32,000 bases of DNA from Mucisphaera calidilacus. GTDB taxonomy: Bacteria; Planctomycetota; Phycisphaerae; Phycisphaerales; Phycisphaeraceae. Location: the NCBI RefSeq assembly GCF_007748075.1, contig NZ_CP036280.1:3450001-3482000 (forward strand). Direction: 5' to 3'. A program made the translations under genes and the position numbers. Positions within the stretch are counted from its first letter, which is position 1. Each line of letters begins with the position of its first letter. Shown here piece by piece: positions 1-27,930 of the stretch. A model generated the notes under the pieces. The model was not told where the DNA came from. It made no database searches and saw only the letters and a program-made list of their open reading frames with translations.

Positions 1-855
1 CTCCTTGAGGTTGTAGTGGGGGTCACGCAGACGCTGCTCCTCACGCGGGTGCGTGAAGAACGACAGCTCCAGCAGCACCGCCGGCACCTTCGTGTAACGC
101 ATCACGCCAAAGCCGCTCTCGTACATCAGCTGATCCGACAGCAAAGGCGACGTCAGACCCGCCTGATACGTCTGCATCGTCCGGAACGTGTTGAACGCGA
201 TGTGCCGCGCCACGTCCAGCTCAACCTCCGCCCAGTCCGACTCGCCGTGGTACCAGATCGACGTGAAGTTCGCCGTCGGCCGAGACGCGTTGTGATGAAT
301 CGAAATAAACAGGTCCGCACCCACGCCGCCGTCCGGCCGCTCAATGTTGTTCGCAAACTCCGCACGCCGCTTGAGCGTCCCCTTCACCGCATCGTTCGCC
401 ACCTCGGAGGTCTCGCCCTCACGCGTCAGATGAACCACGCAACCCGCCTGCTCCAGAAGCTCTCGCAGCAAAAACGCCACACGCAGGTTCATCTCCGCCT
501 CACGCACGCCCGTCGGGCCACGCTTGTAACCCGCCACGTCCGCCTTGCCGCCATGCCCCGGGTCCAGCACGATCACCATCCCCTCGAGGTACTTCTCAGC
601 AGGGTGCCTCGGGATCGGCAGGTAAACCCCGTCCGGGTCCCACGCGTCACGATCCTGCAGCCGCGCCATCGCCTCCTCCAGCGGCGCCGGCTCCCAACCC
701 TCCTCGCCGAACGCCGGCGGCTCCACCACCACCGGCTCAGGTTCCGGCTCCGGCATCGGCTTGGGCTGACACGCAAACAACGAGAACACCAGTCCAACGG
801 CAACAAGACCGAAAAAAGCGGCTCGCAGCGAACGGAAGGGGTAGTTTGTGGGCAT
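1..855 (-). CDS. N-acetylmuramoyl-L-alanine amidase (Amidase_3 / AmiC-like) lipoprotein; C-terminus runs off the window start
   Basis: Absent from the ORF track because no stop lies inside the window. My minus-strand translation from ATG (cat 853-855), in the frame ending exactly at nt 1, gives MPTNYPFRSLRAAFFGLVAVGLVFSLFAC (lipobox) ... MVIVLDPGHGGKADVAGYKRGPTGVREAEMNLRVAFLL ... DLFISIHHNASRP ... VPAVLLELSFFTHPREEQRL. The + ORF 16..918 is its Arg-rich antisense shadow. Confidence 0.85.
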   Translation of the reverse strand, partial: MPTNYPFRSLRAAFFGLVAVGLVFSLFACQPKPMPEPEPEPVVVEPPAFGEEGWEPAPLEEAMARLQDRDAWDPDGVYLPIPRHPAEKYLEGMVIVLDPGHGGKADVAGYKRGPTGVREAEMNLRVAFLLRELLEQAGCVVHLTREGETSEVANDAVKGTLKRRAEFANNIERPDGGVGADLFISIHHNASRPTANFTSIWYHGESDWAEVELDVARHIAFNTFRTMQTYQAGLTSPLLSDQLMYESGFGVMRYTKVPAVLLELSFFTHPREEQRLRDPHYNLKE

Positions 856-881
856 GGCTTGCCTCCGGGCGAAGTCTTACA

Positions 882-889
882 TAAGAATA
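882..889 (-). promoter_or_regulatory. Candidate -10-like element (minus strand reads CCTATTCTTAT) 26 nt upstream of the amidase ATG
   Basis: TAAGAATA on the + strand. The same 8-mer recurs at 3601-3608 and 8013-8020, each 26-41 nt upstream of a minus-strand start codon. Confidence 0.3.
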
Positions 890-940
890 GGTCTACACTG
901 TATCGCGTTGCATCCTAACCCGTCATCGTGGAGGTTGTTC

Positions 941-2323
941 ATGTCACGTCTTCTCATCCTCTGTCTGGTGCTGATCATGAGTCCACTTGTCCGAGCCGAG
1001 GCCCAGCCCGAAGTCCGCGGCACCTGGATGACCACCACCGCCAACGACGCCATCGCCGACCCCGCCAACACCGCCGAGAGCATGAAACGCCTCCGCGCCA
1101 TCGGCCTCAATACCGTCTACGTCGAGACCTGGAAGAACGGCTACACCCAGTTCCCCTCCCGGGTCCTGCTCGACACCGTCGGCGTCGACCGGCGGCCCGC
1201 CCTCGTCAAGGCCGACCCCAGCGACTCCGACGAGAGCGCCGCCTCCGCCGGCCGCGACCTGCTCCAGGAAACCCTCATCGAGGCCCACCGCAACGGACTC
1301 ATCTACGTCGCGTGGTTCGAGTACGGCTTCATGGCCTCTTATAAAGACACCGACAACCACCTCCGACGCCTCAAGCCCGAGTGGCTCACCAACACCGCCG
1401 AAGGTGAGCAGGTCTCCAGCCAGAACCCCTTCGTCTGGATGAACCCGCTCCACCCCGAGGTCCGCGACTTCCTCATGGGCATCATGCTCGAGGCCGTCGA
1501 CAAGTACGACCTCGACGGCGTCCAGCTCGACGACCGCATCGCCTGGCCCGTGACCATGGGCTACGACCCCTACACCATCGAGCAGTACAAGCTCGAGCAC
1601 GACGGCGCCGCGCCGCCCGCCGATCCGCGCGACCCGGACTGGGTCCGCTGGCGTGCCGAGAAGGTCGGCGACTTCGCCGAGCGCTTCTACCGCGAGCTCA
1701 AGCAGAAGCGGCCGCACCTGCTGGTTTCGATCAGCCCGGCGATCTATCCCTGGAGTCTGGAGAACTACGCGTGCGACTGGAAGACGTGGTCGCGGCGGGG
1801 TTGGATGGATGAGTACCTGCCGCAGATATACCGCTTCAATTACGAGACTTATGAGCGTGACTGGCCGGCTCAGATGGACGCGGCGGGCCCGGACCGGCTG
1901 ATGGACCTGATCGCGGGCATCCGCGTGGTGGGCGAGGGGCCGGACACGACGTGGCCGGAGATGGTGCAGAAGATGAACCTGCCCCGCACGACCGGCGCGG
2001 GCGGTCACTGCCATTGGTTCAGCCGGGGCGTGCTCGATGTCTATGAGCAGCAACTCACTGAATTTTATGATGTTGCGAACGAGGGGCACGCGCCGCACCC
2101 CAGGCTCGGCAGCCACTGGCGGCCGCTGCCGGTGGTGGCTGAGGCGGACGATCAGGACCTCAGGCTCTGGCGGGTGAACGTGACGACGCCCGGGAAGTAC
2201 CGCGTGATCATGCACGATGGCGAGGCGTGGTCGGTGGTGGAGAGCCGGTTCTTTTACGCGGGCGAGGCGGAGCTGGAGATCGAGAACGCGGCGCGTGTTG
2301 AGTTGCTGGTTGACCGCCGCTGA
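941..2323 (+). CDS. Secreted glycoside-hydrolase-like family 10 (GHL10/DUF187, YngK-like) protein
   Basis: ORF 848..2323, with the start moved to ATG 941 (GGAGG at 929-933), which gives the signal peptide MSRLLILCLVLIMSPLVRAEA. VRGTWMTT, NTVYVETW and GVQLDDRIAWP motifs are present. It aligns with the paralog at 6412..7971 (FAERFYRELKQKRPHLLVSISP vs FIQRFYTQLKEQSPKVRFGISP). Confidence 0.8.
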   Translation: MSRLLILCLVLIMSPLVRAEAQPEVRGTWMTTTANDAIADPANTAESMKRLRAIGLNTVYVETWKNGYTQFPSRVLLDTVGVDRRPALVKADPSDSDESAASAGRDLLQETLIEAHRNGLIYVAWFEYGFMASYKDTDNHLRRLKPEWLTNTAEGEQVSSQNPFVWMNPLHPEVRDFLMGIMLEAVDKYDLDGVQLDDRIAWPVTMGYDPYTIEQYKLEHDGAAPPADPRDPDWVRWRAEKVGDFAERFYRELKQKRPHLLVSISPAIYPWSLENYACDWKTWSRRGWMDEYLPQIYRFNYETYERDWPAQMDAAGPDRLMDLIAGIRVVGEGPDTTWPEMVQKMNLPRTTGAGGHCHWFSRGVLDVYEQQLTEFYDVANEGHAPHPRLGSHWRPLPVVAEADDQDLRLWRVNVTTPGKYRVIMHDGEAWSVVESRFFYAGEAELEIENAARVELLVDRR

Positions 2324-2350
2324 TCCGGCAGGGCGTGCGCACGACGTGAC

Positions 2351-2405
2351 AAAAACCCAATACTTTGCGCCGTTTTACGTCTAAAAAGCGTGTGCGCAAA
2401 GTATT
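2351..2405 (-). terminator. Long hairpin plus U-tract, candidate intrinsic terminator for the minus-strand URO-D-family gene
   Basis: Perfect 12-bp inverted repeat AATACTTTGCGC (2359-2370) / GCGCAAAGTATT (2394-2405). On the minus strand the stem is followed by GGGTTTTTG (A-run 2351-2355 on +). The 23-nt loop is unusually large. Confidence 0.45.
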
Positions 2406-2406
2406 T

Positions 2407-2428
2407 CGAGTCGTTTTCGACTCGTTTT
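2407..2428 (+). terminator. Rho-independent terminator for the + strand GHL10 gene
   Basis: CGAGTCG (2407-2413) TTTT CGACTCG (2418-2424) followed by TTTT (2425-2428). This is a perfect 7-bp stem with a 4-nt loop and a T-run, about 85 nt after the stop at 2323. Confidence 0.6.
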
Positions 2429-2452
2429 GGTCCGTTTTGGGTCGTTTTGGGT
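2411..2452. repeat. Helically phased tandem CGTTTT(G)G units (4 copies)
   Basis: CGTTTT starts at 2412, 2423, 2433 and 2443 (spacing 11/10/10 bp): tcgttttcgac tcgttttggtc cgttttgggt cgttttgggt. On minus-strand RNA these read as CCCAAAACG repeats. Confidence 0.7.
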
Positions 2453-2565
2453 CGAAATCGCGATTTTTTGTGCGCACCAATCGCGACCAAGGGTCGCCTT
2501 TGTGCGCGGCCGGGCTTACGTTTTGAACGGCCTTCGCGTTAATCTGGGGGATGCTGTTGCGGCGG

Positions 2566-3570
2566 TCAGGTCTGTTGTTGTTTGGCCTCGTCGATGAAGG
2601 CGAGCATGTTTTCGAGGGAGACGTCGCCTTCGACGGCGTGTGCGGGTGAGAAGATGTAGCCGCCGGCCCGGCCCATGTCGAGGAGTTTTCGCGACTCGGC
2701 GCGGACGTCATCGGGCGTGCCGTAGGGCAGGGTTTGTTGTGTGCTGAGTCCGCCCCAGAACGCGAGTCGGCCGTGGTACTGGTCGTGGAGTGCGTGGACG
2801 TCCATGGCCTCGGGCTGGAAGGGGTTGAAGCAGTTGAGGCCGATGCCGATGAGGTCGTCGAAGAGTTCGTCGACGTCACCACAGGAGTGGATGAACTGGT
2901 GGAGTCCGGCGTCTCGGGCGACGGCGTACATGCGTTTGAGGCGGGGGTAGAAGAATTCCTTCCAGATGGGGTATCCCATGATGAGTCCGCTTTGCTGTCC
3001 CCAGTCGTCGCCGAAGTAGACGGCGTCGATGTCGTAGGTGGTGGCTTTGCGGACCTGCTCGATGTTGTAGTCGGCGATGGCGTCGAGGAGCTGGTGGACG
3101 AAGTCGGGGTTCTCGATGAAGTCCATCATGAGGTTTTCCATGCCTCGGAGGGTCCATGCTCTTTCGTAGAGGGAGAACCCGATGCAGTAGAGCCTGTAGC
3201 AGTCGGGGTGGCTGTTGATTCTGGTTTCGATGTCCTCGAAGAACCTGGGGTCGTGCGGGTCGGGGAAGTCGTAGTTGTCGAGGGTGGGTTCGGGCAGGGG
3301 TTCTTTGCGGACGAATCCAATGTCTTTTTCGACTTTACGGTCCCAGACGACGCCGAAGGCGTCCTGATAGAGGTCGTTGTCGATCTGTGTGAAGAATCCG
3401 ACGTCGCTGCCGAGCTCGAGGATATGTCCGCCTGTGGCTTCGAGGAGGTCCTCGTTGCCGTAGTGCTTTTTGAGCTTGTCGGCGGACTCGACGGTGAAGC
3501 GGTAGGACCAGGGCGTGTAGGGGAGTTCCTGGTGCTGGAGTGCCTGTTTGACGATGTCGCGTTTGGTCAT
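2566..3570 (-). CDS. Uroporphyrinogen decarboxylase (URO-D) family protein (methyltransferase/decarboxylase-like)
   Basis: ORF 2566..3927 trimmed to ATG at 3568-3570 ([14 protein letters not shown]...). The 119 codons upstream are Pro/His-rich junk that crosses the repeat and G4 region. The body ([56 protein letters not shown]) resembles the URO-D/MtaA fold. Confidence 0.8.
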
Positions 3571-3600
3571 GGTATGGGCTTCCGGGGGGTGTTTTCGCTG

Positions 3601-3608
3601 TAAGAATA
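3601..3608 (-). promoter_or_regulatory. Candidate -10-like element (minus strand reads GGTATTCTTAC) 30 nt upstream of the URO-D-family ATG
   Basis: TAAGAATA on the + strand, part of the recurrent motif (see 882-889 and 8013-8020). Confidence 0.3.
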
Positions 3609-3834
3609 CCAATTCATATCGATTTGTGTGGTGTTGGCGGCACGGATCCTGGGGAGCCGGTTCGAGGTCCTCGGGGTGGGGGGTGGTGGGGCACACATAG
3701 CAGACGATTCTCTGTCGAGAACCGGTCTGCAATGTGCCACCCCGGTGGTTCGGTATGGCTTGAGGTGGTTGAGGTACAGGATTCTGTGGGCAGCCCTTGC
3801 CTTCGGCTGCGGTCTGTCCACAGCCACCCGGAGT

Positions 3835-3859
3835 GGGGAGTGGGGAGTGGGGTGTGGGG
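3835..3859 (+). other. Canonical G-quadruplex motif GGGG-AGT-GGGG-AGT-GGGG-TGT-GGGG
   Basis: G4 runs at 3835-3838, 3842-3845, 3849-3852 and 3856-3859. The last run overlaps the first 2 nt of the left 46-bp direct repeat, and a G7 run follows at 3876-3882. Confidence 0.6.
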
Positions 3860-3903
3860 TGTGTCAGTTGTTGGCGGGGGGGTCGAGTTCGGAGGTGATT
3901 CGG
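3858..3903. repeat. Left copy of a perfect 46-bp direct repeat (orphan duplicate of the GNAT gene 3' end)
   Basis: GGTGTGTCAGTTGTTGGCGGGGGGGTCGAGTTCGGAGGTGATTCGG is identical 46/46 to 5846-5891. Identity breaks on both sides (3857 g vs 5845 t; 3904 a vs 5892 t). Confidence 0.95.
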
Positions 3904-3923
3904 AGCGGATGCGGCAAGGGCGC

Positions 3924-4979
3924 TCAATAGCGTCTAATAGCCGCCAGTAGAAGTTTGTCGCTAAACATAGCTTGTTTGCGTTGCGCGGCATCTGCACTGT
4001 AGGGCCAGTGGGCGATTCCCTCTCGGATGCTTTGCAAAGTGGGCTCGCATTTCTCTGCGTCGATCAGCCAACCAACGGTAGCCAGTGCTTCCATGCCAAG
4101 AGGTGACTGGAAACCGTCGATGAAAGCATCTGCAGCATCAATGGCTTCGACCCAGTGCTTCTTCTCGCCGCCCTGAAGGAAGGCTCTGAGCTTCTGGTCG
4201 TGTGAAGGAGCGAAGTGGATGGTGTCCAACGGGGTTGAGTCCGCAAGACGTTTCTCGCAGTGCAGGTAGCTGCCGTCGAGTTTGTCCAAGAGATGTCGGA
4301 GATTGTTGGAGTAGGGGCCGTATTTCTGAGCGGTGAAGTCGAGTTTCAGGGGATTCTTGAGCCCCATCTGATTGATCACACGGTTAAGCACCCAAGCCAG
4401 TTTCTGGATTTCGAGTATTGAGCAGTCGAGCCCAAGTATCTCGTAGCGACGGATCATCTCTGCGATCATCGCACGGGGTGGTGTCAGTTCTTCAAGACCT
4501 GTAGTTTTGCTGACATTACGGTAAGCTTGGCTGGGTTCATAGACCAGAATTCTGACGTTCTGGAGATCGCTTAGGTGTTGTTCGATGAGCGGTCGCACGT
4601 CGGCCCAATCGAGTTTGCCGTTGCCACTGCCAAGCGGTGGGATACCAATGGATTTGATGTTCAGGTCGAGGATGACTTGGCGCAGGTCGGCAAGCCCCTG
4701 ATCAATCCATTCGATTTTTGAGGGTGGACGCCAGTGTTTCTTAGTCGGGAAGTGAATCACCCACTTTGGGTTGTGTAGTTGTCCGGTTTGCGTGACGAAC
4801 ATCTTGCCCGTTAGAACCTCGTTGCGGTCGCAGGCCGTCTTGTAGGCGTTGAAGATGTCGGGGAATCTGTCCTTAAACATCAGGGCGATGCCCTTGCCCA
4901 TGACGCCGACGGTGTTGACGGTGTTGACAAGTGCCTCGGTGTCGGCTTCCAGCAGATTGCCTGAGGTGTAGTGAATCAT
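3924..4979 (-). CDS. darG: DarG antitoxin: DNA ADP-ribosyl glycohydrolase (N-terminal macrodomain plus DarG C-terminal domain)
   Basis: [43 protein letters not shown]...[21 protein letters not shown]...[13 protein letters not shown] is nearly collinear with the macrodomain of M. tuberculosis DarG (Rv0060) as I recall it. Its ATG lies 1 nt after the darT stop (TGAcATG). Confidence 0.95.
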
Positions 4980-4980
4980 G

Positions 4981-5649
4981 TCAGAAGTACCATGATGGCA
5001 ATGTTTTAACGGCTAGATTCAAGCTGGCGTTTGCGGTGTCGTTTGCAATCTGTTCGGTGGTTGACTCATTGTAGCACGCAATACCGAGTAGGGCATCGAT
5101 GGGTACGTGGCGGTATGCGAGCGCTTCGGCCTGATAGCGGTTGAATTTCTCAGGGCGTTCTGGGTCTCGTCTGAAGTCTTTTGCCTGAAGCAGTGGCCAA
5201 TCGATCTTGTCGAGATCATCGACAGAGTTGTAGCAGGTGCTTTCCTGCATGTATGCGTGGCCGTCGTAGAAGACGAAGGGGATTTTGAGCTCGGCTAATC
5301 GGTGCACGGAAGAGGTGAGGATCACGATCTCGTGATTCGGACGCTGGATTACGCCATGGTATCCGGTTTTGATGTTGTACATCATGACTGAGTAAGGCGT
5401 GAAATAGAACGGTATGTAGTCTGCGAGCGTCCCCCTCGGTTCGGCTTCTACCGTGTGGCTTGACCGTTTGAGGATTAACTCCTGACTGCCGATGGGCACG
5501 AAGTTCAAATCTTGCTTTGGGCTATTCATGCAGTGCAGACCGTTATCCAGAAGCCATGGCACGTTATTGACGTGCGTAATGCGAAATATTCTCCCATCTT
5601 TTGCGTTCAGGCCTGCCATTTCAGTTCGGCACCATCTCGCTTCCAGCAT
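4981..5649 (-). CDS. darT: DarT toxin: ssDNA thymidine ADP-ribosyltransferase (DUF4433)
   Basis: RIFRITHVNNVPWLL, LADYIPFYFTPYSVMMYNI, IPFVFYDGHA, IDWPLLQAKDF, RYQAEALAY (catalytic QAE Glu motif) and the PSWYF C-terminus match the Thermus aquaticus DarT pattern (HITHIDNL, YVPFYF, FVFTDRH, KQAEFLV, KDWYY). An alternative start is ATG 5617-5619 (MAGLNAKDGR). Confidence 0.93.
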   Translation of the reverse strand: MLEARWCRTEMAGLNAKDGRIFRITHVNNVPWLLDNGLHCMNSPKQDLNFVPIGSQELILKRSSHTVEAEPRGTLADYIPFYFTPYSVMMYNIKTGYHGVIQRPNHEIVILTSSVHRLAELKIPFVFYDGHAYMQESTCYNSVDDLDKIDWPLLQAKDFRRDPERPEKFNRYQAEALAYRHVPIDALLGIACYNESTTEQIANDTANASLNLAVKTLPSWYF

Positions 5650-5783
5650 GTGGTTGTCCCCGGCGGTAAGGGTGTTTTGTAGCGGTCTGTGGCAGATACC
5701 GCAATGGAGCTTTGCGGGAAGGAGCTCTCGGCTGATGTCTGTGTGAAGTGTGCTGTGATCGGATGCGGTAGTCCTTCGACTCG

Positions 5784-5819
5784 GCTCAGGATCTTGCCCC
5801 TTCGGCCTTGCTCAGGATC
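5784..5819 (-). promoter_or_regulatory. Two 10-bp direct repeats GCTCAGGATC upstream of darT (candidate operator/promoter region)
   Basis: GCTCAGGATC occurs at 5784-5793 and 5810-5819 (26-bp period), 135-170 nt upstream of the darT ATG and inside the island. Confidence 0.25.
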
Positions 5820-5845
5820 AGGCTTGTCGCGAGGAGGCGGGCGGT

Positions 5846-5891
5846 GGTGTGTCAGTTGTTGGCGGGGGGGTCGAGTTCGGAGGTGATTCGG
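5846..5891. repeat. Right copy of the 46-bp direct repeat (functional 3' end of the GNAT gene)
   Basis: Identical to 3858-3903. It contains the last 13 codons ([15 protein letters not shown] end) and the stop codon (TCA 5852-5854 on +) of the GNAT CDS plus 6 nt downstream. Confidence 0.95.
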
Positions 5892-6349
5892 TTGGCGTAG
5901 ATGCCGGGTGAGGAGCCGGGGATTTCGGTGGCGTTGCAGGCGCGTGCGTAGAAGTCGGCGGGTCCGACGCCTCCGATGATGCCGTAGGCGTAGCCTTCGT
6001 GCCAGAGTGCCCAGAGTGCGGCGAGGAGGAGGGCTTTGCCGACGCCTTTGCCGCGGGCGGTGTCGGCGACGCCTGTGGGCCCGAAGTAGCCTTTGCGGGT
6101 GACGTCGTAGCAGGCGAAGCCGATGATCTGTTCGTTTTCGACGGCGATGAAGCAGCTGACGGGTGTGTTGGAGAAGGCGGCGTTGCACTCGTCGGCCCAG
6201 GCGGGCTGGAACTCGTCGTTGGCGAATCGGAGGAGGTGTCGTCGTTCGTGGGCGCTGATGCGTCGGATGACGATGCCCTGGTCTGCGAGGTTGCGGATCA
6301 GCTCGCGGTGATCGGGCAGTTCGTAGAGTTTGACGAGCATGTCGGGCAT
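5852..6349 (-). CDS. GNAT family N-acetyltransferase
   Basis: ORF 5852..7051 trimmed to ATG 6347-6349 (MPDMLVKLYELPD...). The acetyl-CoA-binding signature VADTARGKGVGKALLLAAL is present. The upstream part of the track ORF is an Arg-rich shadow of the GHL10 gene. Confidence 0.85.
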   Translation of the reverse strand: MPDMLVKLYELPDHRELIRNLADQGIVIRRISAHERRHLLRFANDEFQPAWADECNAAFSNTPVSCFIAVENEQIIGFACYDVTRKGYFGPTGVADTARGKGVGKALLLAALWALWHEGYAYGIIGGVGPADFYARACNATEIPGSSPGIYANRITSELDPPANN

Positions 6350-6381
6350 GGTGTGCGTCGGGGGGTTGGGGGTGTTGTTGG

Positions 6382-6403
6382 GCCCGAGGCCTGTGCCTCG
6401 GGC
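6382..6403 (-). other. Perfect 9-bp stem-loop between the GHL10 paralog stop and the GNAT start
   Basis: GCCCGAGGC (6382-6390) CTGT GCCTCGGGC (6395-6403). No U-tract follows on the minus strand, so it is more likely an mRNA processing, stability or attenuation hairpin than a full terminator. Confidence 0.4.
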
Positions 6404-6411
6404 TCGCGGGA

Positions 6412-7971
6412 TTATTGGGGGAGTTCGAGGATGACCTTGTCGCTGGCGATGCCGAGTTCGTCGACGACGAAGGTGACGACGGCCTCGACGCCGAGGTTGG
6501 GGATGTCGGTCATGTCCTTGTCGGTGGCGGGCATGTTGGCGAGGCCCATGCGTGAGATGGCGGGGAGGATGGTGTTTTCCCAGTTGCCGTCGCGTTTGAC
6601 CTGGATGACCCACCAGCGAGCGTTTTCGAGGGATCGGTGTCCTGCGACGACGCGGATGCCGTCGTCGGCGATGATGTTGACGGTGGCGGTAGGAGCCTGG
6701 GGTTGTGTGCCGTCGGAGAGCCACGGGCTGGCGGGGACGAGTGCGGGTTTGGCGTAGACGGTGTTGGCGAGGTTTTCGCGGAGTTCGGGGTTTTTGGTGA
6801 CGGACTTGGCGGAGAAGTGGACGTGTCCGTCGGCGCCCTCGATGTGCCGGATCCACTGGATCTGGTAGTTGATTTCGTTCTCGTCGAACTGGTTGCCGGT
6901 GCGGTAGGTTCCGAGTCCGGGCCAGAGGTTTCGTCCGGTGGGGTTCTGCTCGGACCACCAGTTCAGGAGTGCGACGAAGCTCTGCTGGGGTTTGGCGATT
7001 TCCCAGTAGAGTTGGGGCGTGTAGTAGTCGACCCAGCCTTCGACGAGCCACTTGCGTGCGTCGGCGTAGAGTCCTTCGTACTGGTTGAAGCCCTGGATCT
7101 GTTCGGGATGACCGGGTTTCCAGATGCCGAAGGGGCTGATGCCGAAGCGGACCTTGGGGGATTGCTCTTTGAGTTGTGTGTAGAAGCGTTGGATGAAGTC
7201 GTCGACGGCGGCGCGTCGGAAGTCGCTGATGCCGAGGGTTCCGCCTGCGTCGGTGTAGGCCTTGTAGGTTTGGGCGTCGGGGAAGTCGACGATCTGGCCG
7301 TCGTCGCCTCGGACCTGGTAGGGGTAGAAGTAGTCGTCGATGTGGATGCCATCGACGTCGTAGCGTTTGGCGACGTCGAGGAAGACGTCGAGCGAGCGTT
7401 GTTTAACTTTTTCTTCGGCGGGGTTCATCCAGCGGTAGACGCCATACTGCGGGACGATGTCGGGGTCGGTGACGGCGATGTGGTCGTCGGTGAGGGGTGA
7501 TTTCTGGTTGGGGTGGAGGGCTCGGTAGGGGTTGAACCATGCGTGGAGTTCGAGTCCGCGTTTGTGGGCTTCGGCGCAGGCGAACTTGAGGGGGTCGTAG
7601 TAGGGTTCGGGTGCTTTGCCCTGTTCGCCTGTGAGGTAGTGCGACCAGGGTTCGAGGGGTGAGTCGTAGAGCGCGTCGGCGTGGGGTCGCACCTGGAAGA
7701 CGACGGCGTTCATGTTGAGTGCGGCGAATTCGTCGAGGTATTCGATGAGTTCGGCTTTTTGTTGTTCGACGGGGAGGCCGGGTTTTGAGGGCCAGTCGAT
7801 GTTGGCGACGGTGGCGATCCAGGCGGCGCGGAATTCGCGGGGCACTTCGGGGACGCCGAGTTCTTTGAGCGCGGCGTCGTGGGTGCTGAGTTCGTCGGTC
7901 GGCGCGGTGGAGCAGCCGAGCGGGAGTGCGGCGATGAGGGTGAGGGCGAGGAGGGTGGCGAGGTGTCGCAT
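6412..7971 (-). CDS. Glycoside-hydrolase-like family 10 (GHL10/DUF187) lipoprotein, paralog 2
   Basis: ORF 6412..8130 trimmed to ATG 7969-7971 (MRHLATLLALTLIAALPLGC lipobox). FRAAWIATVANIDWPSKPGL, MNAVVFQVRPHADALY and LELHAWFNPYRA are classic GHL10 motifs. Confidence 0.88.
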   Translation of the reverse strand: MRHLATLLALTLIAALPLGCSTAPTDELSTHDAALKELGVPEVPREFRAAWIATVANIDWPSKPGLPVEQQKAELIEYLDEFAALNMNAVVFQVRPHADALYDSPLEPWSHYLTGEQGKAPEPYYDPLKFACAEAHKRGLELHAWFNPYRALHPNQKSPLTDDHIAVTDPDIVPQYGVYRWMNPAEEKVKQRSLDVFLDVAKRYDVDGIHIDDYFYPYQVRGDDGQIVDFPDAQTYKAYTDAGGTLGISDFRRAAVDDFIQRFYTQLKEQSPKVRFGISPFGIWKPGHPEQIQGFNQYEGLYADARKWLVEGWVDYYTPQLYWEIAKPQQSFVALLNWWSEQNPTGRNLWPGLGTYRTGNQFDENEINYQIQWIRHIEGADGHVHFSAKSVTKNPELRENLANTVYAKPALVPASPWLSDGTQPQAPTATVNIIADDGIRVVAGHRSLENARWWVIQVKRDGNWENTILPAISRMGLANMPATDKDMTDIPNLGVEAVVTFVVDELGIASDKVILELPQ

Positions 7972-8012
7972 GGAGAGTTCCTCTGATTGTTTCAGAACCG
8001 ATAGAAGAACCA

Positions 8013-8020
8013 TAAGAATA
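8013..8020 (-). promoter_or_regulatory. Candidate -10-like element (minus strand reads GGTATTCTTAT) 41 nt upstream of the GHL10 paralog-2 ATG
   Basis: TAAGAATA on the + strand, the third copy of the recurrent motif. Confidence 0.3.
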
Positions 8021-8099
8021 CCAGAGAGGCCGTCGGGTGTGTCGGCGTGTGGTTCGACAAGGGGGGTTGGGGTGTCCATGATGGCGGCTGGAGTTTGTG

Positions 8100-9470
8100 A
8101 TGCTGGAATACATCGCGGGTTTTCGGCCATCGGCTCAGCCGCTGATGACGCGGCCGACGTACGAGCGTGAGTTGTGGACGGCGATGGCGATGCCGATCGC
8201 GGTGTCGATGGTCGAGGGCGGCGTGGTGGGGATTCTGGCGAAGAAGGCTTTTGATGTTTCGCCGATCGTTTTCGCGGCGATCCAGGCGGCGCCGATGTTC
8301 GCGAACGTGACGAGTCTGGGTTGGGCGATGCTGGCGCGGGGCAGGCCGAAGGTGCCGTTCATCACGGGGATGATGGTGGTGGTGCTGTTGTGCGTGGCGG
8401 GGATCGCGTTGTTGCCGACGGGTGGCGTGTTGGGTTCGTGGTTGCTGGCGTTGCTGGTGATCGCGTCTCGGTGTCTGCTGGCGGGTGTGGTGACGCTCCG
8501 GAGCGTGGTGTGGCGGAACAATTATCCGCGTCACGTTCGGGCGCAGATCACGGGTCGTTTGTCGCTGGTGGTGAGTCTGGTGGTGGCGGTGGCGCCGGTG
8601 GTGGGGTACGGCTTTCTGGATCGCGGGCCGGAGAACTTCCGGATTCTGTATCCGGTGGCGGCGTTGCTGGCGGTGGTGGGTGTGGTGTCGTTTTCGCGGG
8701 TGCGTTTGCGTCAGGAGGCGAGTCTGCTGGCGTACGAGAATCGGTCTGATGTGGAGCCGGTGCCGAAGGGTGAGACGGGCGCGGTGTATGAGTATGAGGC
8801 GTTGCCACGGGACACGTTCTGGTCGGTGTTGCGGAAGGACGGTGCGTTTCGGACGTACATGTTCTGGCAGTTCATCGCGGGGATGTCGATGATGTCGGGC
8901 GAGACGGTGGTGGTGTACGTGATTGCGGAGCAGACGGCGGGCTGGTCGTATGAGTATCTGCTGTCGGTGTTGTTGTCGACGTCGGTGCCGATGCTGGTGG
9001 CGGTGGCGTTGATGCCGACGTGGGCGCGTTATCTGGATCGGGTGCACATCGCGAAGTTCCGGACGCGTCAGGGCTGGTTCTGGGCGTTGGCTCAGGGATT
9101 GAATCTGATGGGCGCGTTGCTGGGTTCGTTGTCGCTGATCGGTTTGGCGCGTGCGGTGATCGGGATGGTTCGTGCGGGTGGGATGCTGGCGTGGAACCTG
9201 GGTCACAATGATTTTGCGGACCGTCGGCTGGTGTCGATTTACATGGGGATCCACGTGACGCTGACGGGTGTGCGTGGCGCGATTGCGCCGTTCCTGGGGA
9301 TTCTGCTTTATGCGGGGTGGTCGGAGCGTGATTTGGGGGGTGGCGTGGTGCTGCCGGGGTTCGAGGGATTGGGGAGTTGGTTTTTTGCGGTGTCGTTGGG
9401 ATTGGCGGTGCTGGCGTGGGCGGGTTTTGCCCGGATGGCGCGGGAGGCTGAGTCGGTGGCGGGGTCATGA
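8100..9470 (+). CDS. MFS-type multi-pass membrane transporter
   Basis: The 457-aa ORF (GTG 8097 / ATG 8100) has about 12 hydrophobic segments and short Arg-rich loops (WRNNYPRHVRAQITGR, WARYLDRVH) in an MFS-like layout. The substrate is unknown. Confidence 0.7.
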   Translation: MLEYIAGFRPSAQPLMTRPTYERELWTAMAMPIAVSMVEGGVVGILAKKAFDVSPIVFAAIQAAPMFANVTSLGWAMLARGRPKVPFITGMMVVVLLCVAGIALLPTGGVLGSWLLALLVIASRCLLAGVVTLRSVVWRNNYPRHVRAQITGRLSLVVSLVVAVAPVVGYGFLDRGPENFRILYPVAALLAVVGVVSFSRVRLRQEASLLAYENRSDVEPVPKGETGAVYEYEALPRDTFWSVLRKDGAFRTYMFWQFIAGMSMMSGETVVVYVIAEQTAGWSYEYLLSVLLSTSVPMLVAVALMPTWARYLDRVHIAKFRTRQGWFWALAQGLNLMGALLGSLSLIGLARAVIGMVRAGGMLAWNLGHNDFADRRLVSIYMGIHVTLTGVRGAIAPFLGILLYAGWSERDLGGGVVLPGFEGLGSWFFAVSLGLAVLAWAGFARMAREAESVAGS

Positions 9471-11690: not shown

Positions 11691-11759
11691 GGCGAGGTGG
11701 TTGGGAGGGCACCATGAGCACGGACCTGCAGGAAAAGGTCCGTGGCACCGTGTTGTGGC

Positions 11760-12092
11760 TTAGGCGGAGAAAGAGGATCCGCAGCCGCAGGAGGAGGTGG
11801 CGTTGGGGTTGTTGAAGACGAAGCCACGTCCCATGACTTCGTCTTTGAAGTCGATGGAGACGCCGTTGAGGTAGAGGTAGGACTTGGGGTCGCAGACGAC
11901 CTTGATGCCGTGCTGGTCGAACTCTTCGTCGGCGTCGCGAGCGGTTTCGGTGAGGTCGAGGAGGTAGGAGAAGCCGGAGCAGCCGCCACCCTTGACGCCG
12001 ACGCGGAGGCGGACCTTCTGGCGGTCGAGTTCCTGCTGGTCGATGATGGTGCTGATCTCGCGTGCGGCGGTTTCGCTGATGGTGATGCCCAT
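11760..12092 (-). CDS. iscA: A-type Fe-S cluster carrier (IscA/ErpA/HesB family)
   Basis: MGITISETAAREI...RVGVKGGGCSGFSY...FVFNNPNATSSCGCGSSF carries the canonical C-X(n)-CGC ligand motif. Confidence 0.92.
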   Translation of the reverse strand: MGITISETAAREISTIIDQQELDRQKVRLRVGVKGGGCSGFSYLLDLTETARDADEEFDQHGIKVVCDPKSYLYLNGVSIDFKDEVMGRGFVFNNPNATSSCGCGSSFSA

Positions 12093-12171
12093 GGGCGTTG
12101 GTCCTTACAAAGGGGCACCGCGGGGGTGCTGTTTTTGAGATTGAGAATAGTTACCGGTTCGTCGGACGGTG

Positions 12172-12198
12172 ATTATAGCGACTGCGAACGCGGGTCAA
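12172..12198 (-). promoter_or_regulatory. Candidate internal sigma70-type promoter for iscA (TTGACC-N15-TATAAT on the minus strand)
   Basis: On the minus strand, TTGACC lies at 12193-12198 and a perfect TATAAT at 12172-12177. The 15-nt spacer is short. A hairpin GCACC-GCGGG-GGTGC (about 12114-12130) lies between it and the iscA ATG. Confidence 0.3.
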
Positions 12199-12218
12199 CA
12201 AGGGGTTGGGTGGGTGTT

Positions 12219-12617
12219 TCAGTCGTCGTGTTCGAGGCCGTTTTTGTGCTCGTAGTCGTGGATGGCGGCCTTGATGGCGTCTTCGGCGAGGACGGAGCAG
12301 TGGATTTTCACGGGCGGGAGGGAGAGTTCCTCGACGATCTGCGTGTTTTTGATGTCCTCGGCCTCGTGGATGGTTTTGCCTTTGAGCCACTCGGTGGCGA
12401 GTGAGGAGGAGGCGATGGCGGACCCGCAGCCGAAGGTCTTGAACTTGGCGTCTTCGATGACGCCTGTGTCGGGGTTGACCTGGATCTGGAGTCGCATGAC
12501 GTCGCCACACTCGGGGGCGCCGACGACGCCTGTGCCGACGGTGGTGGCGTCCTTGTCGAGTGTCCCGACGTTGCGTGGGTTTTCGTAGTGGTCGATGACT
12601 TTTCCGCTGTATGCCAT
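12219..12617 (-). CDS. iscU: Fe-S cluster assembly scaffold IscU
   Basis: MAYSGKVIDHYENPRNVG...GAPECGDVMRLQI...FKTFGCGSAIASSS...LPPVKIHCSVLAEDAI is a full IscU signature with three Cys ligands and LPPVK. Confidence 0.95.
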   Translation of the reverse strand: MAYSGKVIDHYENPRNVGTLDKDATTVGTGVVGAPECGDVMRLQIQVNPDTGVIEDAKFKTFGCGSAIASSSLATEWLKGKTIHEAEDIKNTQIVEELSLPPVKIHCSVLAEDAIKAAIHDYEHKNGLEHDD

Positions 12618-12672
12618 GGTTGGTTTCCTCAGTCTGTGTTTAATCGGTTTCGGTGGTTTTGTATTCCGCGGG

Positions 12673-13893
12673 TCAGTGAGCGCCCCACTGGACGGTGGCG
12701 AGGTCGATGCCTTCTTTGACCATGTCGTAGAGGGGGCTCATGGCGAGCAGGTGGTTGACGGACTTGACGACCTGCTGGACGGTGTAATCGACTTCTTCCT
12801 CGGTGTTGAATCGTCCGAGTCCGAAGCGGATGGAGCTGTGCGCGATCTCGTCGCCTGCGCCGAGTGCCTTGAGGACGTAGCTGGGCTCGAGTGACGCGGA
12901 GGTGCATGCGGAGCCGGAGGAGACGGCGATTTCCTTCATGGCCATCATGAGGGACTCGCCCTCGACGTAGGGGAAGGAGATGTTGGCGGTGTGGGGGAGT
13001 CGTCGGGTCTTGTGGCCGTTGAGGACGGCGGTTTCGATCTGTCCGGTGATGCCGTCGACGAGTCGGTCGCGGAGTGCGGTGAGTCGTTCGGCCTCGGATT
13101 GCATTTCGTTGGCGCAGATCTCGCAGGCGGCGCCGAGACCGACGATGCCGGTGACGTTGAGGGTTCCGGAGCGCATGCCGCGTTCGTGGCCGCCGCCCTC
13201 GATGATGGGAGCGAGCCGGACGCGTGGCTTGCGTCGTCGGACGTAGAGGAATCCGGCGCCCTTGGGTCCGTACATTTTATGTGCGGTGGCGGAGAGGAGG
13301 TCGATGCCGGCGGCTTCGACGTCGGTGGGCATTTTGCCGACCCACTGCGTGGCGTCGGTGTGGAAGAGGACGCCTTTGTCCTTGCAGATCGCGCCGATCT
13401 CGGGGATTTCGTTGGCGGTGCCGACCTCGTTGTTGGCCCACATGACGGAGACGAGGATGGTGTCGTCGCGGATTGCCTCTCGGACCTGTTCGGCGTAGAT
13501 GACGCCATCCTGTCCGGGTTCGAGGAAGGTGACGTCGTAGCCCTCGCGTTGGAGTCGTTTGCAGGGGTCGAGGACGGCCTTGTGTTCGTGGACGGCGGAG
13601 ATGATGTGTTTGCCCTGTTTGGCGTACATGTCCGCGGCGCCCTTGATGGCGATGTTGTTGGACTCGGTGGCGCCGGAGGTCCAGATGATCTCCTTGGGGG
13701 AGGCGTTGATGAGGGAGGCGACCTGCTGTCGTGCCTTGTCGACGGCGTCCTCGGCGGCCCAGCCGAAGCTGTGGTTGCGGCTGGAGGCGTTGCCGAAGTG
13801 CTCGGTGAAGTAGGGGAGCATGGCGTCGAGCACCCTGGGGTCCATGGGTGTGGTCGCGTTGTGGTCCATGTAGATGGGGAGCTTGAGGGTCAT
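12673..13893 (-). CDS. iscS: Cysteine desulfurase IscS (PLP-dependent)
   Basis: [10 protein letters not shown]...SGATESNN...SAVHEHKAV...[10 protein letters not shown]...[21 protein letters not shown] shows the group I desulfurase active-site loop. Confidence 0.95.
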
Positions 13894-14399
13894 GGTTGTT
13901 TTTCTCGGTTCAGAACGTTGAGGGTTGGCGTTTTGCCGTTGTTAGATGCTAGCGGGGTCGTGGGGATCGGGTCGGGCTTGTCGGTGACGAGGTCGTCGAG
14001 GGTGACCGAGTGGAAGAAGGCTCTCATGCGTCGGTCGAGTCGCTGCATGGGGTTCTCGATGGGGCAGCTGCCATGGTGCCGGCAGGACTTGTTGCGTTCG
14101 TCGGCGTCGTCGCAGCACTGGACGAGGTGGATGGGTCCTTCGAGTGCGGTGAAGACGTCGAGGAGGGTGATGGCGTCGGGTTGTCGTTGGAGGTGGTATC
14201 CGCCTCGTGCCCCGCGTGTGGAGGCGACGATGTCTGCGGCGGCGAGGTCTTTGAGGATGTTCATGAGCAGGGCGAGGGGTAGCTGGTAGGCGTCGGCGAT
14301 GTGCCTGGCGCTGGTGGGTGGCGTGTGCTCGTCGTGGTTGCCGGCGAGGTGGGTGAGGGCAACCAGTGCGTAGTCGGCTTTTTTGGTCAGGCTAAGCAT
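13890..14399 (-). CDS. iscR: Rrf2-family transcriptional regulator (IscR-like)
   Basis: ORF 13890..15170 trimmed to ATG 14397-14399 ([19 protein letters not shown]...). It has a winged HTH and the Cys cluster [18 protein letters not shown]. Its stop overlaps the iscS ATG (ATGA). Confidence 0.88.
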
Positions 14400-14419
14400 G
14401 GTGTTGTTTCCCGTTTCGT

Positions 14420-14445
14420 CTGAATAGTAGGACTGATTCAGTGCG
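14420..14445. promoter_or_regulatory. Candidate IscR operator upstream of iscR
   Basis: CTGAATAGTAGGACTGATTCAGTG has outer inverted repeats CTGAAT/ATTCAG and a core GACTGATTCAGT that resembles the GACTRWWWYAGTC core of type-1 IscR sites. It sits 21-46 nt upstream of the iscR ATG. Confidence 0.35.
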
Positions 14446-14576
14446 ATTTCAATGGGTGTCGCTATCCTGTTCGCAGGGGGATGGTGGCGGGTTCGATCTA
14501 TGGGGGAAATCCCGCTATTTTGGTGACGGGACTCTTTAGATGGATGGTTTGGACCCTTGACGAAAGGCCGGTCACG

Positions 14577-15191
14577 ATGTCTCTGTATAAGTCGATGTTG
14601 TTGTTCGGGGCCCCGGGTTCGGGCAAGGGCACGCAGGGTGCGATTCTGGGTCGGATTCCGGGTTTTTATCACTGCTCGTGTGGCGACGTGTTTCGGTCGA
14701 TCGACCTGCACAGCGACCTTGGGAAGGTGTTTTATGAGTATTCGTCGCGGGGCGAGCTGGTGCCTGACGAGGTGACGGTTCAGATGTGGGCGAAGGTGAT
14801 CCACGCGCACTCGGTGTTGAGTCAGTACAAGCCGCACGTGGATCTGCTGATTCTGGACGGGATACCGCGGACGCTGCGCCAGGCGGAGCTGATGGATGAG
14901 CACATCGAGGTGTTGAAGATTGTGCACCTGGAGTGTGACAACGAGGAGGAGATGTTTGACCGGTTGCGCAAGCGTGCGTTGAAGGCGAACCGTCATGACG
15001 ATGCGGATGAGCGTGTGATCCGGAACCGGTGGAAGGTTTACGAGGAGGAGACGGCGCCGGTGCTGGATCATTACCCGTCGGAGAAGATCATTTCGGTGAA
15101 TTCGCTGGGGTCGCCAGCCGAGATCCTGCACGACATTCTGGAGGTCGTGACGCCTATTCAGCAGGAGCACTTTGCGGCATTCAGCGGCTGA
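14577..15191 (+). CDS. adk: Adenylate kinase / nucleoside-monophosphate kinase
   Basis: ORF 14481..15191 trimmed to ATG 14577 (MSLYKSMLLFGAPGSGKGTQG P-loop). LILDGIPRTLRQAE and RHDDADERVIRNRWKVYEEETAPV are present. Confidence 0.85.
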   Translation: MSLYKSMLLFGAPGSGKGTQGAILGRIPGFYHCSCGDVFRSIDLHSDLGKVFYEYSSRGELVPDEVTVQMWAKVIHAHSVLSQYKPHVDLLILDGIPRTLRQAELMDEHIEVLKIVHLECDNEEEMFDRLRKRALKANRHDDADERVIRNRWKVYEEETAPVLDHYPSEKIISVNSLGSPAEILHDILEVVTPIQQEHFAAFSG

Positions 15192-15391
15192 CTGGTGTTG
15201 ATTTTGCGGGGTTTGTGAGGTTTGTGCGGGTCGTGGCGATGAGGCGATGTGTTTCGGGGGTTTGGGTTACTCGATAGGGCCTGCCATTGTTTGGGTGTTT
15301 TCCCTGAGCAGTGATTGCGTTCGCTCTCGGGTGTGTCGATAGGGAAGTTTCCGAGTGACCATGATGTCCTCGAACCGTGGGAGGTATCGAT

Positions 15392-15703
15392 ATGAGTCAG
15401 GTTCCCGAGCCTTTGCTCAGTGAGTTCGCCGACGATCCGGACATGCGTGAACTGGTTGAGATGTTCGTGGAGGAGTTGCCGGGGCGTGTGTCATCGATCG
15501 AGGCGGCTTTGGCGGAGGGTTTGCTGGAGGACCTGGCGCGTCTGTCGCATCAGTTGAAGGGTGCGGCGGGTGGTTATGGGTTTATGCCGATCACGGATGC
15601 GGCGCGTGAGGTCGAGGCGTTGGCGAAGTCCGGCGCCGAGTTGGATGCGTTGCGTGGCGAGGTGGACGCGTTGCTGGGGTTGTGTCGTCGGGCGCAGGCC
15701 TGA
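15392..15703 (+). CDS. Hpt (histidine phosphotransfer) domain protein
   Basis: ATG 15392 is preceded by GGGAGG (15379-15384). The phosphorylatable-His motif is LSHQLKGAAGGYGF. Confidence 0.85.
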   Translation: MSQVPEPLLSEFADDPDMRELVEMFVEELPGRVSSIEAALAEGLLEDLARLSHQLKGAAGGYGFMPITDAAREVEALAKSGAELDALRGEVDALLGLCRRAQA

Positions 15704-15748
15704 GTGTGCAGCGGTGCGGGTTGATGCGGGTATGAAAGGTTTGATTCG

Positions 15749-16660
15749 ATGAACCAGACAGTTCTGATTATTGATGATTCGCCGGACATCCATCGCATCA
15801 TTGAGGTGCGTGGCCGCGATCTGGACGTGCGTTTTGTGTCGGCGCTGGACGCGGAGGAGGGTTTTGCGCTCGCGGCGTCGGAGCGTCCGGACCTGATTCT
15901 GCTGGACGTGGATCTGGGTGAGGGCACGAGTGGTTTTGACCTGTGCGAGAGGCTCAAGTCGACGCCCGTGGTTCGTGACGTGCCGGTGATCTTCCTGACG
16001 GGTGAGGGTCAGAGTGACAGCAAGATCCGTGCGTTTGACATCGGCGCGGTGGATTACGTGGTGAAGCCGTTCAATCATGGCGAGTTGCTGGCGCGGATGC
16101 GTTCGGCGCTGCGGACGAAGCATCTGGTGGACATGCTGGCGGAGTGTGCGAATCTGGATGGGCTGACGGGTCTGCGGAACCGTCGTTACTTTGATGAGCG
16201 GTTGGCGCAGGAGGTTGAGACGGTTCGTCGTCACGACTGTGCGTTGACGCTGATCATCATGGACATTGACAAGTTCAAGACGATCAACGACACGCTGGGG
16301 CATCCGCGGGGTGACCAGGTGATTCAGGCGTTGGGGCAGGTGATTCAGCGCGTGGGGCGGATGACGGATATTCCGTGTCGTCTGGGCGGTGACGAGTTTG
16401 TGCTGATGCTTCCTCAGACGGACACGCCGGCTGTGGAGGTGGTGGCGGAGCGGCTGTGCGAGGCGGTTCGTAGCGACGAGACGCTCAACCGTCTGGTGCC
16501 GAACGGCGTGACGTGCAGTGTCGGTCTGGCGTCGACCTCGATGCTCGAGGATCTGTCGGCGGACGCGTTGATCGAGGCGGCGGACCAGGCGTTGTATGCG
16601 TCGAAGCGTGGCGGCCGGGATCGCTGGACGGCTTACGAGCGGGGTCGCGCGGCGGCGTGA
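15749..16660 (+). CDS. Response regulator receiver plus GGDEF diguanylate cyclase (PleD/WspR-like)
   Basis: The REC domain shows VLIIDDSPDI...DLILLDVDL...PVIFLTG...KP. The GGDEF domain shows DGLTGLRNRRYF...RLGGDEFVLML...ASKRGGRDR. Confidence 0.92.
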   Translation: MNQTVLIIDDSPDIHRIIEVRGRDLDVRFVSALDAEEGFALAASERPDLILLDVDLGEGTSGFDLCERLKSTPVVRDVPVIFLTGEGQSDSKIRAFDIGAVDYVVKPFNHGELLARMRSALRTKHLVDMLAECANLDGLTGLRNRRYFDERLAQEVETVRRHDCALTLIIMDIDKFKTINDTLGHPRGDQVIQALGQVIQRVGRMTDIPCRLGGDEFVLMLPQTDTPAVEVVAERLCEAVRSDETLNRLVPNGVTCSVGLASTSMLEDLSADALIEAADQALYASKRGGRDRWTAYERGRAAA

Positions 16661-16693
16661 GTCACGGGGTCGCGGTCCGGTTATAGTCGGGTG

Positions 16694-17938: not shown

Positions 17939-17944
17939 GGAGGC

Positions 17945-18598: not shown

Positions 18599-18742
18599 TC
18601 TGAAAAAGCCTTGTCTTCATCGGGTTAGGGTGATACGGTTGTATTTACCGATCATGTCTTTGGGCGAGGCCTGCTCGCTGTTTTGGGTTCGCCGGGCCGA
18701 TTGCGATTCTTTCTTGTGGCCCGAGAAATACGAGGTTGAGCG

Positions 18743-19459: not shown

Positions 19460-19485
19460 CGGGTTGATTCTGGGCGGGAGAGGAT

Positions 19486-19513
19486 TTGACTTGGTTTACG
19501 GGTTCGCTAGTAT
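19486..19513 (+). promoter_or_regulatory. Sigma70-type promoter TTGACT-N16-TAGTAT driving a probably leaderless arsR-arsM mRNA
   Basis: TTGACT lies at 19486-19491 and TAGTAT at 19508-19513. The arsR ATG (19520) is only 6 nt beyond the -10 element, and there is no Shine-Dalgarno sequence. Confidence 0.5.
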
Positions 19514-19519
19514 GCTTGC

Positions 19520-20835: not shown

Positions 20836-20873
20836 ATGTTTTTCAGGCGGGGGTGGTGCCTGGCCGATGGGGA

Positions 20874-20898
20874 TGATATCATGATATCACTTTGATAG
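20874..20898. promoter_or_regulatory. Candidate antitoxin operator: tandem palindromic TGATATCA x2 plus TGATAG half-site
   Basis: TGATATCATGATATCA (20874-20889) is a perfect 16-bp palindrome, and TGATAG (20893-20898) overlaps the AGGAGG SD of the antitoxin gene. It resembles the TGCTATCA/TGATAGCA repeats bound by Neisseria FitA (from memory). Confidence 0.5.
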
Positions 20899-20908
20899 GA
20901 GGTGTTGG

Positions 20909-27880: not shown

Positions 27881-27930
27881 TCCTTCTCTGGATTGCGGGT
27901 GAGCTCGTCGTCCTGACGGGTGCACCAACG

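Follow-up and report, generated by a model that had tools for sequence, protein, structure and literature searches.

Abrupt reversal of strand bias inside an intact GHL10 gene of Mucisphaera calidilacus and its reading as a boundary in replication direction

What could turn the strand composition of a bacterial chromosome around inside a single, uninterrupted gene? The question is raised by a 32,000-nucleotide stretch of chromosome from the marine bacterium Mucisphaera calidilacus Pan265 (the window; positions below are those of the window unless another contig is named), in which the plus strand changes from C-rich to G-rich within the gene at 941–2323 (plus strand). This gene encodes a glycoside-hydrolase-like protein of the GHL10 family (PF02638; Pfam E = 4.5e-59); its open reading frame (ORF) is intact, and the product is 100% identical to the deposited protein QDU72994.1 of M. 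calidilacus Pan265. An initial annotation, made by reading the letters of the stretch, had described an abrupt skew flip here and offered three explanations: a recombination junction between inverted paralogs, an assembly chimera, or a genuine replichore boundary. We found that the strand bias reverses within ∼20 bp inside the intact enzyme gene and that this reversal is real and highly significant. With moderate confidence, we read the switch as a true change in the direction of replication, of the origin type under the canonical sign rule.

In sliding windows, the GC skew of the plus strand was −0.16 to −0.20 over bases 1–1500, +0.09 over 1501–2500, and +0.13 to +0.43 from 2001 to 32000; in 100-bp bins, its sign turned from −0.05 (1601–1700) to +0.14 (1701–1800). 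The cumulative GC skew of the window has its minimum at position 1750, with skews of −0.18 to the left and +0.30 to the right that are independent of gene strand, as at an oriC judged locally. Within the ORF, all third positions taken together placed the change from C to G at 1691/1694 (log-likelihood ratio, LLR, of 28). At the 216 fourfold-degenerate G/C sites, where G/(G+C) rises from 0.12 on the left to 0.71 on the right, the change fell between codons 1697 and 1709 with an LLR of 42.1, compared with a maximum of 11.0 in 2,000 permutations. The change-point likelihood at these sites (support interval of 2 log units) puts the switch point at 1691–1712, within the residues FYRELKQK/RPHLL of the protein. 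Both the flip inside an intact coding sequence, with which the sliding skew agrees, and its earlier placement between the codons at 1697–1699 and 1709–1711 are thus borne out. The change from NNC to NNG occurs in each of Leu, Val, Ser, Pro, Thr, Ala, and Arg, with Gly alone keeping GGC; since the switch is seen inside single amino acid families, amino acid composition is not its cause. GC content is equal on both sides of the switch, and nothing unusual was predicted for the DNA secondary structure at 1691–1712 (z = 0.16). A gene-intrinsic codon gradient was also considered and rejected: the mean right-minus-left difference of the orthologs was only +0.08, and their background profile was flat.

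The same polarity extends to the genes on either side. Read on the plus strand, fourfold G/(G+C) to the right of the switch was 0.872 for pooled plus-strand genes and 0.928 for pooled minus-strand genes, and that of the minus-strand amidase gene to the left was 0.17. Because the values mirror each other whatever the gene strand, effects of transcription and codon preference are excluded. Polarity is a property of the DNA strand rather than of the transcribed strand, and the two sides sit at mirror-image compositional equilibria (0.12–0.17 versus 0.87–0.93). The initial annotation had been right on both flanks, describing the amidase as C-rich on the plus strand and the right side as G/T-rich regardless of gene orientation. 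Over the G/T-rich arm (1701–32000), plus-strand skews are +0.30 (GC) and +0.22 (TA) in whichever direction the genes run, so that G and T are jointly enriched on one strand as in classical replication skew. Its (G−C)/N is 0.19–0.21, about eight times the typical bacterial value of ∼0.025 (SkewDB, PMC8941118).

Relatives came from scanning species-representative genomes and then looking up exact proteins; three belong to the same clade: L001 (Mucisphaera sp., the 3.25-Mb contig NZ_CBDIIJ010000002.1), L081 (JAVKDK010000020.1), and L083, with GHL10 proteins 80%, 82%, and 71% identical to that of the window. The gene order amidase (−), GHL10 (+), GNAT (−), GHL10b (−), MFS (+), FtsJ (−) and onwards is collinear in the window and all three. 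In each of these relatives, the sense strand of GHL10 is uniformly G-rich, for at least 10 kb leftward and to the end of the locus (6–10 kb) rightward, with fourfold values of 0.78–0.99 in L001 and L083. Their amidase orthologs, in the same position and orientation, read 0.87–0.97 versus 0.17 in the window. Over the amidase gene and the first half of GHL10, the relatives are therefore G-rich where the window is C-rich. A similarly extreme, orientation-independent bias was seen in other contigs of the Phycisphaerae (L001, L083, L033, L057, L043, and L019 among them), with fourfold values of 0.15–0.35 or 0.74–0.89. Polarity flips in L008, L004, and L011 were set aside; they follow gene orientation.

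This collinearity bears on two of the explanations first offered. A chimeric assembly, fused within a conserved gene, is very unlikely: Pan265 is an axenic isolate with a closed chromosome (3,486,541 bp, no plasmid, 2,913 genes, 63.9% G+C), the gene product is the deposited protein, three independent assemblies run collinear across the join, and both flanks share their closest relative. Nothing in Pan265 speaks for a chimera, which would be possible for the metagenome co-assembly contig of L003, a more distant genome considered below. We likewise give hardly any credence to an inversion endpoint, made by recombination between inverted GHL10 paralogs and leaving a chimeric but intact gene. An inverted paralog does lie 4 kb away (GHL10b, 6415–8130, minus strand, the only GHL10 paralog in the window), but its protein is only ∼24% identical to that of 941–2323, and an exchange between both copies would move a flip, not create one at the junction. 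The relatives have a single gene to which both halves are equally orthologous, and synteny and orientation are kept on both sides in three of them. Among the 120 best homologs, we found neither the reciprocal chimeric GHL10 paralog that such an event would leave in Pan265 nor a second close GHL10 protein from this organism.

The two halves of the gene also have the same history. Compared with the L001 ortholog, the halves agree in amino acid identity (0.79) and in identity at first and second codon positions (0.85). Third-position identity is 0.59 on the right and 0.40 on the left; the drop comes from sites at which L001 carries G or T but the window carries C. L083 is the closest relative for the left-hand amidase and, to the right, for GNAT, GHL10b, MFS, and FtsJ (d = 0.17–0.24; 0.195 for the amidase), and the relative divergence ratios of the left segment (0.98 and 1.32) fall within the right-side range (0.9–2.45). 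Since relationships and divergence are the same on both flanks, the C-rich segment is native and changed polarity in place. The marks of a recombination junction are missing, the sides being alike in relationships and divergence and without a synteny break between them. By these comparisons, the switch formed in place, without rearrangement or import. Amino acid composition, tried as a guide to the polarity of genes farther to the left, gave a signal no stronger than in controls.

The same comparisons make it quite improbable that the segment was brought in by homologous replacement or gene conversion, with the amidase and the first half of GHL10 imported, through one intragenic crossover, from a related strain that replicates this locus in the opposite direction. 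That the boundary is sharp and in frame would suit such an event, as would the comparable intragenic junction in L003 and the insertions that the spot downstream of GHL10 has collected in the window and in L083. GHL10 relationships disagree with those of the flanks for L083, so recombination has touched the gene within the clade. However, the donor would need exactly the same relationships: the amidase shares its closest relative with the right flank, the divergence ratios of the left segment are within the right-side range, and amino acid and first- and second-position identities are equal in both halves. Alleles of opposite polarity, moreover, differ at most synonymous sites (third-position identity 0.40), and there was no exact run of at least 17 nt between the window and L081 or L001 in the left GHL10 half, which would make a RecA-type crossover very inefficient. 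A crossover hotspot at the most conserved stretch was rejected, as the junction ranks only tenth, not first, in conservation.

Recombination near this gene has left traces of another kind. In L083 (10001–13072), the C-terminal half of GHL10 is aberrantly divergent (d = 0.34–0.37 from all three relatives), although the genes flanking it are the nearest relatives of those in the window. A SocA/Panacea-type gene is inserted downstream of GHL10 at the same spot as the insert in the window. This intergenic site is a hotspot of both insertion and recombination.

A genuine boundary in replication direction would account for the switch as follows. The lineage has an extreme strand-specific mutation bias in which one strand gains G and T, as would be expected from an excess of C-to-T changes on it. 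This bias would have driven synonymous sites to opposite equilibria, so that the boundary could be read to ∼20 bp even within a gene under purifying selection. Leading strands canonically have more G than C and more T than A, and by this rule a passage from C-rich to G-rich along the plus strand is origin-type. DNA to the left of ∼1700 would then be copied leftwards and DNA to the right of it rightwards, and a change of replication direction over the left segment would be the simplest cause of its change in polarity. The boundary would have moved to its present position once the sister lineage L083 had split off, and it may be the chromosome’s main origin-side boundary, roughly 31–37 kb from dnaA. 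The origin-type reading rests on the joint enrichment of G and T, the divergence of the genes from the switch (the amidase points leftward and GHL10 rightward), a step instead of a gradient, and a dnaA-proximal place in the record. A step rather than a gradient is the expected trace of a fixed start site. The sign argument of the initial annotation and, of its three options, the replichore boundary seem to us, by a cautious judgement, to fit the evidence best. Its verdict that an origin here is implausible went too far, for the point at which the leading strand switches need not coincide with the region where the initiator binds. The AT-rich repeat region 0.6 kb downstream (2324–2565), which it had put forward as the origin, may be the nearest unwinding or initiator-binding region; it remains a candidate only and could equally be a pair of terminator hairpins.

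Polarity is weaker just to the right of the switch than farther on. The 3′ part of GHL10 (1709–2323, plus strand) forms a shoulder that is G-rich yet weakly polarised, with 65 G to 27 C at fourfold sites (0.71), below the pooled plus-strand genes (0.71 versus 0.872; Fisher p = 6e-5); the equivalent part of the L081 gene reads 0.85. This weaker polarity would fit a short zone between two leading-strand starts or a boundary that has drifted.

The place of dnaA can be approximated from gene numbering and from relatives. The gene at 27877–28320 is Pan265_29030, and since the chromosome has 2,913 genes, no more than a few kb separate the window from the end of the linear record; by locus-tag arithmetic, the switch would be ∼37 kb away from the junction of the record. 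The gene cut by the right end of the window is panC, which stands directly downstream of dnaA in four of the six Phycisphaeraceae dnaA loci examined (P. mikurensis and three others). The order GNAT–dnaA–panC is also found in four of the six, including three of the four loci L084, L085, L087, and L089; in L085, a dehydroquinate-synthase gene follows dnaA. In these four loci, an intergenic region of 540–700 bp separates GNAT from dnaA. Adjacency of panC and dnaA in relatives, together with the locus-tag position, would place Pan265 dnaA at least 31 kb, and roughly 31–37 kb, to the right of the switch. The DnaA protein of the Phycisphaeraceae is divergent, being ∼24% identical to B. subtilis DnaA and carrying the NCBI name “DnaA/Hda family protein.” Two word-seeded homolog searches with Phycisphaeraceae DnaA, the first with an over-strict E-value limit, returned six to seven matches, with Pan265 DnaA not among them. 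In L049, dnaA lies 8 kb from GHL10; we dismissed this as a coincidence, there being no further shared synteny.

Several observations weigh against an origin-type boundary at the switch. Neither dnaA nor dnaN occurs anywhere in the 32-kb window. DnaA boxes (TTATCCACA, at most one mismatch) gave two matches versus 2.5 expected in the window, neither of them near the switch, and relaxed scans requiring ...CACA found no DnaA-box cluster in the window; the lack of these landmarks nearby, stated at the outset, extends to the whole of it. Ordinary terminator hairpins would also account for the AT-rich region, which has a terminator-like site at 2407–2424. The C-rich sequence visible in the window amounts to 1.7 kb only. 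The closest relatives are without the switch, so that a new or relocated origin must be postulated, and 14 of the 18 genes at the locus in relatives are on the C-rich strand, which is unusual if the G-rich strand is leading. In L081, polarity falls from 0.97 to 0.61–0.68 and then to 0.31 (a partial adk) over 13773–21398, where the syntenic genes read 0.85–0.95 in the window and L001; polarity in this syntenic region seems to have changed recently or diffusely. The 5–9 kb upstream of dnaA in L084, L085, L087, and L089 are G-rich (0.62–0.76) on the dnaA sense strand, and the downstream sequence is approximately neutral. If Pan265 were built likewise, its G-rich stretch would be a block of ∼35 kb, not a whole arm, and the chromosome would have extra boundaries or very unequal arms. 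Finally, the evidence on the skew sign rule in the Phycisphaeraceae is divided: the gene placement of the relatives is set against that of P. corsica, in which 14 of 17 genes lie on a strand whose overall GC skew is +0.09, with one strongly G-rich block.

Many of these points come together in the view that the switch arose in place and through replication but bounds a limited block of reversed polarity, or is another replication landmark, and not the main origin. We consider this unlikely, though a serious contender. In one version, the switch is a site-specific fork barrier or a terminus-type boundary, which would require that the sign rule be inverted and the origin lie upstream of dnaA. In another, it is the left edge of a G-rich block adjoining dnaA, as in other Phycisphaeraceae; such blocks run independently of gene strand on the dnaA sense strand in L084 (1–10000), L085 (4200–9400), L087 (800–5500), and L089 (7400–9400) and then give way to nearly neutral sequence. 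The conserved GNAT–dnaA–panC order suggests that dnaA is just past panC at the right end of the window, the predominance of genes on the C-rich strand in relatives would be normal if that strand were leading, and the gradient in L081 (0.97 to 0.31) shows an in-place polarity change within the clade. The C-rich stretch of L003 measures only ∼5 kb. Against a limited block stands the joint enrichment of G and T, which is that of a canonical leading strand, and the skew of the gene-rich strand in P. corsica is in line with the canonical rule. The blocks linked to dnaA, moreover, belong to weakly skewed genomes and are not symmetric flips. Boundaries ∼35 kb apart on a 3.5-Mb chromosome would mean that replication runs almost entirely one way, which no direct evidence supports.

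P. corsica shows another change of composition at a different locus. In its sequence CP036425.1 (L086, at ∼1.55 Mb), 11747–21259, the fourfold value goes from 0.10 in dnaJ to 0.72 in grpE on the same strand, and an unskewed block of low third-position G+C lies upstream. A polarity boundary may lie between dnaJ and grpE, or these chaperone genes may owe the change to codon bias that goes with high expression.

A second switch in the same gene complicates a boundary that moved in one lineage. In a scan of 79 GHL10 orthologs, one other strong intragenic switch was found, in L003, a contig from a metagenome co-assembly (CAYSIX010000179.1; SRP141376) that belongs to a different genus and has 71% G+C. 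Its GHL10 ortholog (5213–6670) is 63% identical to that of the window, and it too changes from C-rich to G-rich (0.17 to 0.65; LLR 31.6) at a site that maps to window coordinate ∼1691. The L003 switch persists within amino acid families, and the sequence to its right is G-rich on either strand (0.65 for the 3′ half of GHL10, 0.67 for a plus-strand oxidoreductase gene, 0.66 for the minus-strand GNAT gene). Inverted copies of a GFO-family oxidoreductase gene flank the region (836–1642, minus strand, a fragment; 6677–7681, plus strand). The GHL10 orthologs of P. mikurensis and P. corsica, read in frame, have no switch. The comparison with relatives is thus divided: the three close ones keep the synteny and lack the switch, and the distant L003 has one at the same codon, which a lineage-specific move of an origin does not predict. 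The coincidence could be due to chance, to which we would assign about 10–25% given an uncertainty of about ±150 bp in L003, or it could reflect a site-specific property of the GHL10 gene. It is possible, but distinctly doubtful, that a boundary (origin or fork barrier) that moved in place between sister species and recurs at the same codon in another genus is a site-specific landmark in or tied to GHL10, or a sign of an unusual replication mode with very unequal arms or extra start sites.

We compared the switch with known systems of strand asymmetry. With the skew switch at bacterial origins, as used in Lobry-type analysis, DoriC, and SkewDB practice, it shares the C-rich to G-rich sign, the joint enrichment of G and T, the independence of gene orientation, the step, and the dnaA-proximal place. 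It departs from the usual origin switch in having about eight times the magnitude, in lying inside an intact gene, and in having no DnaA-box cluster and neither dnaA nor dnaN within 30 kb; sister genomes of the same gene order, moreover, have no switch here. A skew switch at the terminus and dif was reportedly treated by Hendrickson and Lawrence in 2007. That switch is likewise sharp and site-specific and can shift in place when arm lengths change, but it has the opposite sign by the canonical rule (G-rich to C-rich). A dif-like site for XerC/D was sought in the window as a 28-mer, and the best matches had 11–13 mismatches of 28, no better than chance elsewhere in the window.

Inversions, horizontal transfer, and plasmid integration leave local skew anomalies (SkewDB, PMC8941118). 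Such anomalies also reverse abruptly, and the DarT/DarG cassette of the window, with fourfold values of 0.61–0.69, is an insert of this kind that has not yet ameliorated. The switch, unlike these, comes without a break in synteny or a difference in relationship or GC content, and both of its sides are at equilibrium. In animal mitochondrial genomes, strand asymmetry at fourfold sites is extreme and C-to-T change dominates on one strand. The asymmetry there is comparable in size; here, however, it occurs on a 3.5-Mb chromosome, with no gradient over 30 kb and no evidence for strand-displacement replication. On balance, the feature appears to be a replication-polarity boundary of unusual strength and sharpness, set within a gene and displaced relative to sister genomes.

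The mutational strand bias is so strong that the favoured base occupies ∼90% of fourfold G/C sites. If the switch is a replication boundary, the point at which the leading strand changes could thus be read from the sequence to ∼20 bp, where ordinary genomes allow kilobases. Sister genomes with identical gene order would then differ in the place or presence of the boundary, and movement of an origin or terminus could be studied without the confounding effect of rearrangement. The lack of a canonical DnaA-box cluster, together with a divergent DnaA, would also make the nature of the origin in Phycisphaerae a testable question. Codon usage set by position relative to the boundary affects gene prediction, the detection of horizontal transfer, and inferences about expression drawn from codons.

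The rest of the window holds housekeeping and sugar-recycling genes in both orientations, and no tRNA gene or Rfam family was matched in it. On the C-rich side, the amidase is the sole sequence besides the 5′ part of GHL10 and the promoter region. It is represented by the N-terminal 285 codons of an N-acetylmuramoyl-L-alanine amidase gene (1–855, minus strand; Amidase_3, E = 5e-30), truncated by the left end of the window. Between it and GHL10 lies a divergent promoter region (856–940) that carries a 26-nt element at 874–899 (ACATAAGAATAGGTCTACACTGTATC), matched at 88% in the equivalent place in L081 and L082 and over 15 nt in L083. We take this element to resemble the operators of GntR/HutC-type amino-sugar regulators. 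A GntR gene is present in the conserved left-flank cluster of the relatives.

Downstream of GHL10, the AT-rich region at 2324–2565 is lineage-specific and lies between convergent genes. It contains two strong hairpins (2359–2405 and 2407–2424, the latter followed by a T run; fold z = −3.85), a tandem repeat of a 10-bp T-tract unit in five copies (2404–2454), and four GTGCGC boxes on the same strand (2335, 2392, 2470, and 2502); 6 of the 23 GTGCGC occurrences in the window fall within 170 bp. The region is part of a segment (2324–3857) that is missing in L001 and L081, along with a URO-D-family gene (2566–3570, minus strand; Pfam URO-D, E = 9e-23) and a G-rich spacer of 290 bp, and the lineage-specific sequence had no match in the compared loci or in plasmids. 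The fourfold polarity of the URO-D-family gene is 0.93, so it is fully ameliorated. The whole synteny gap, window 2324–5860, corresponds to ∼215 bp in L001. The segment at 2324–3857 is followed by the DarT/DarG toxin–antitoxin cassette (3858–5891, minus strand; DarG 3924–4979, DarT 4981–5649), bounded by a perfect 46-bp direct repeat (3858–3903 and 5846–5891) that duplicates the 3′ end of the GNAT gene; no integrase is present. It is a recent insert, because its GC content is lower (0.53–0.55) and its polarity weak. In the 350 bp that separate the URO-D-family gene from this cassette, a G-rich heptamer (GGAGTGG) is repeated in tandem 4.9 times, and there are GGGG runs (3830–3863 and 3640–3680).

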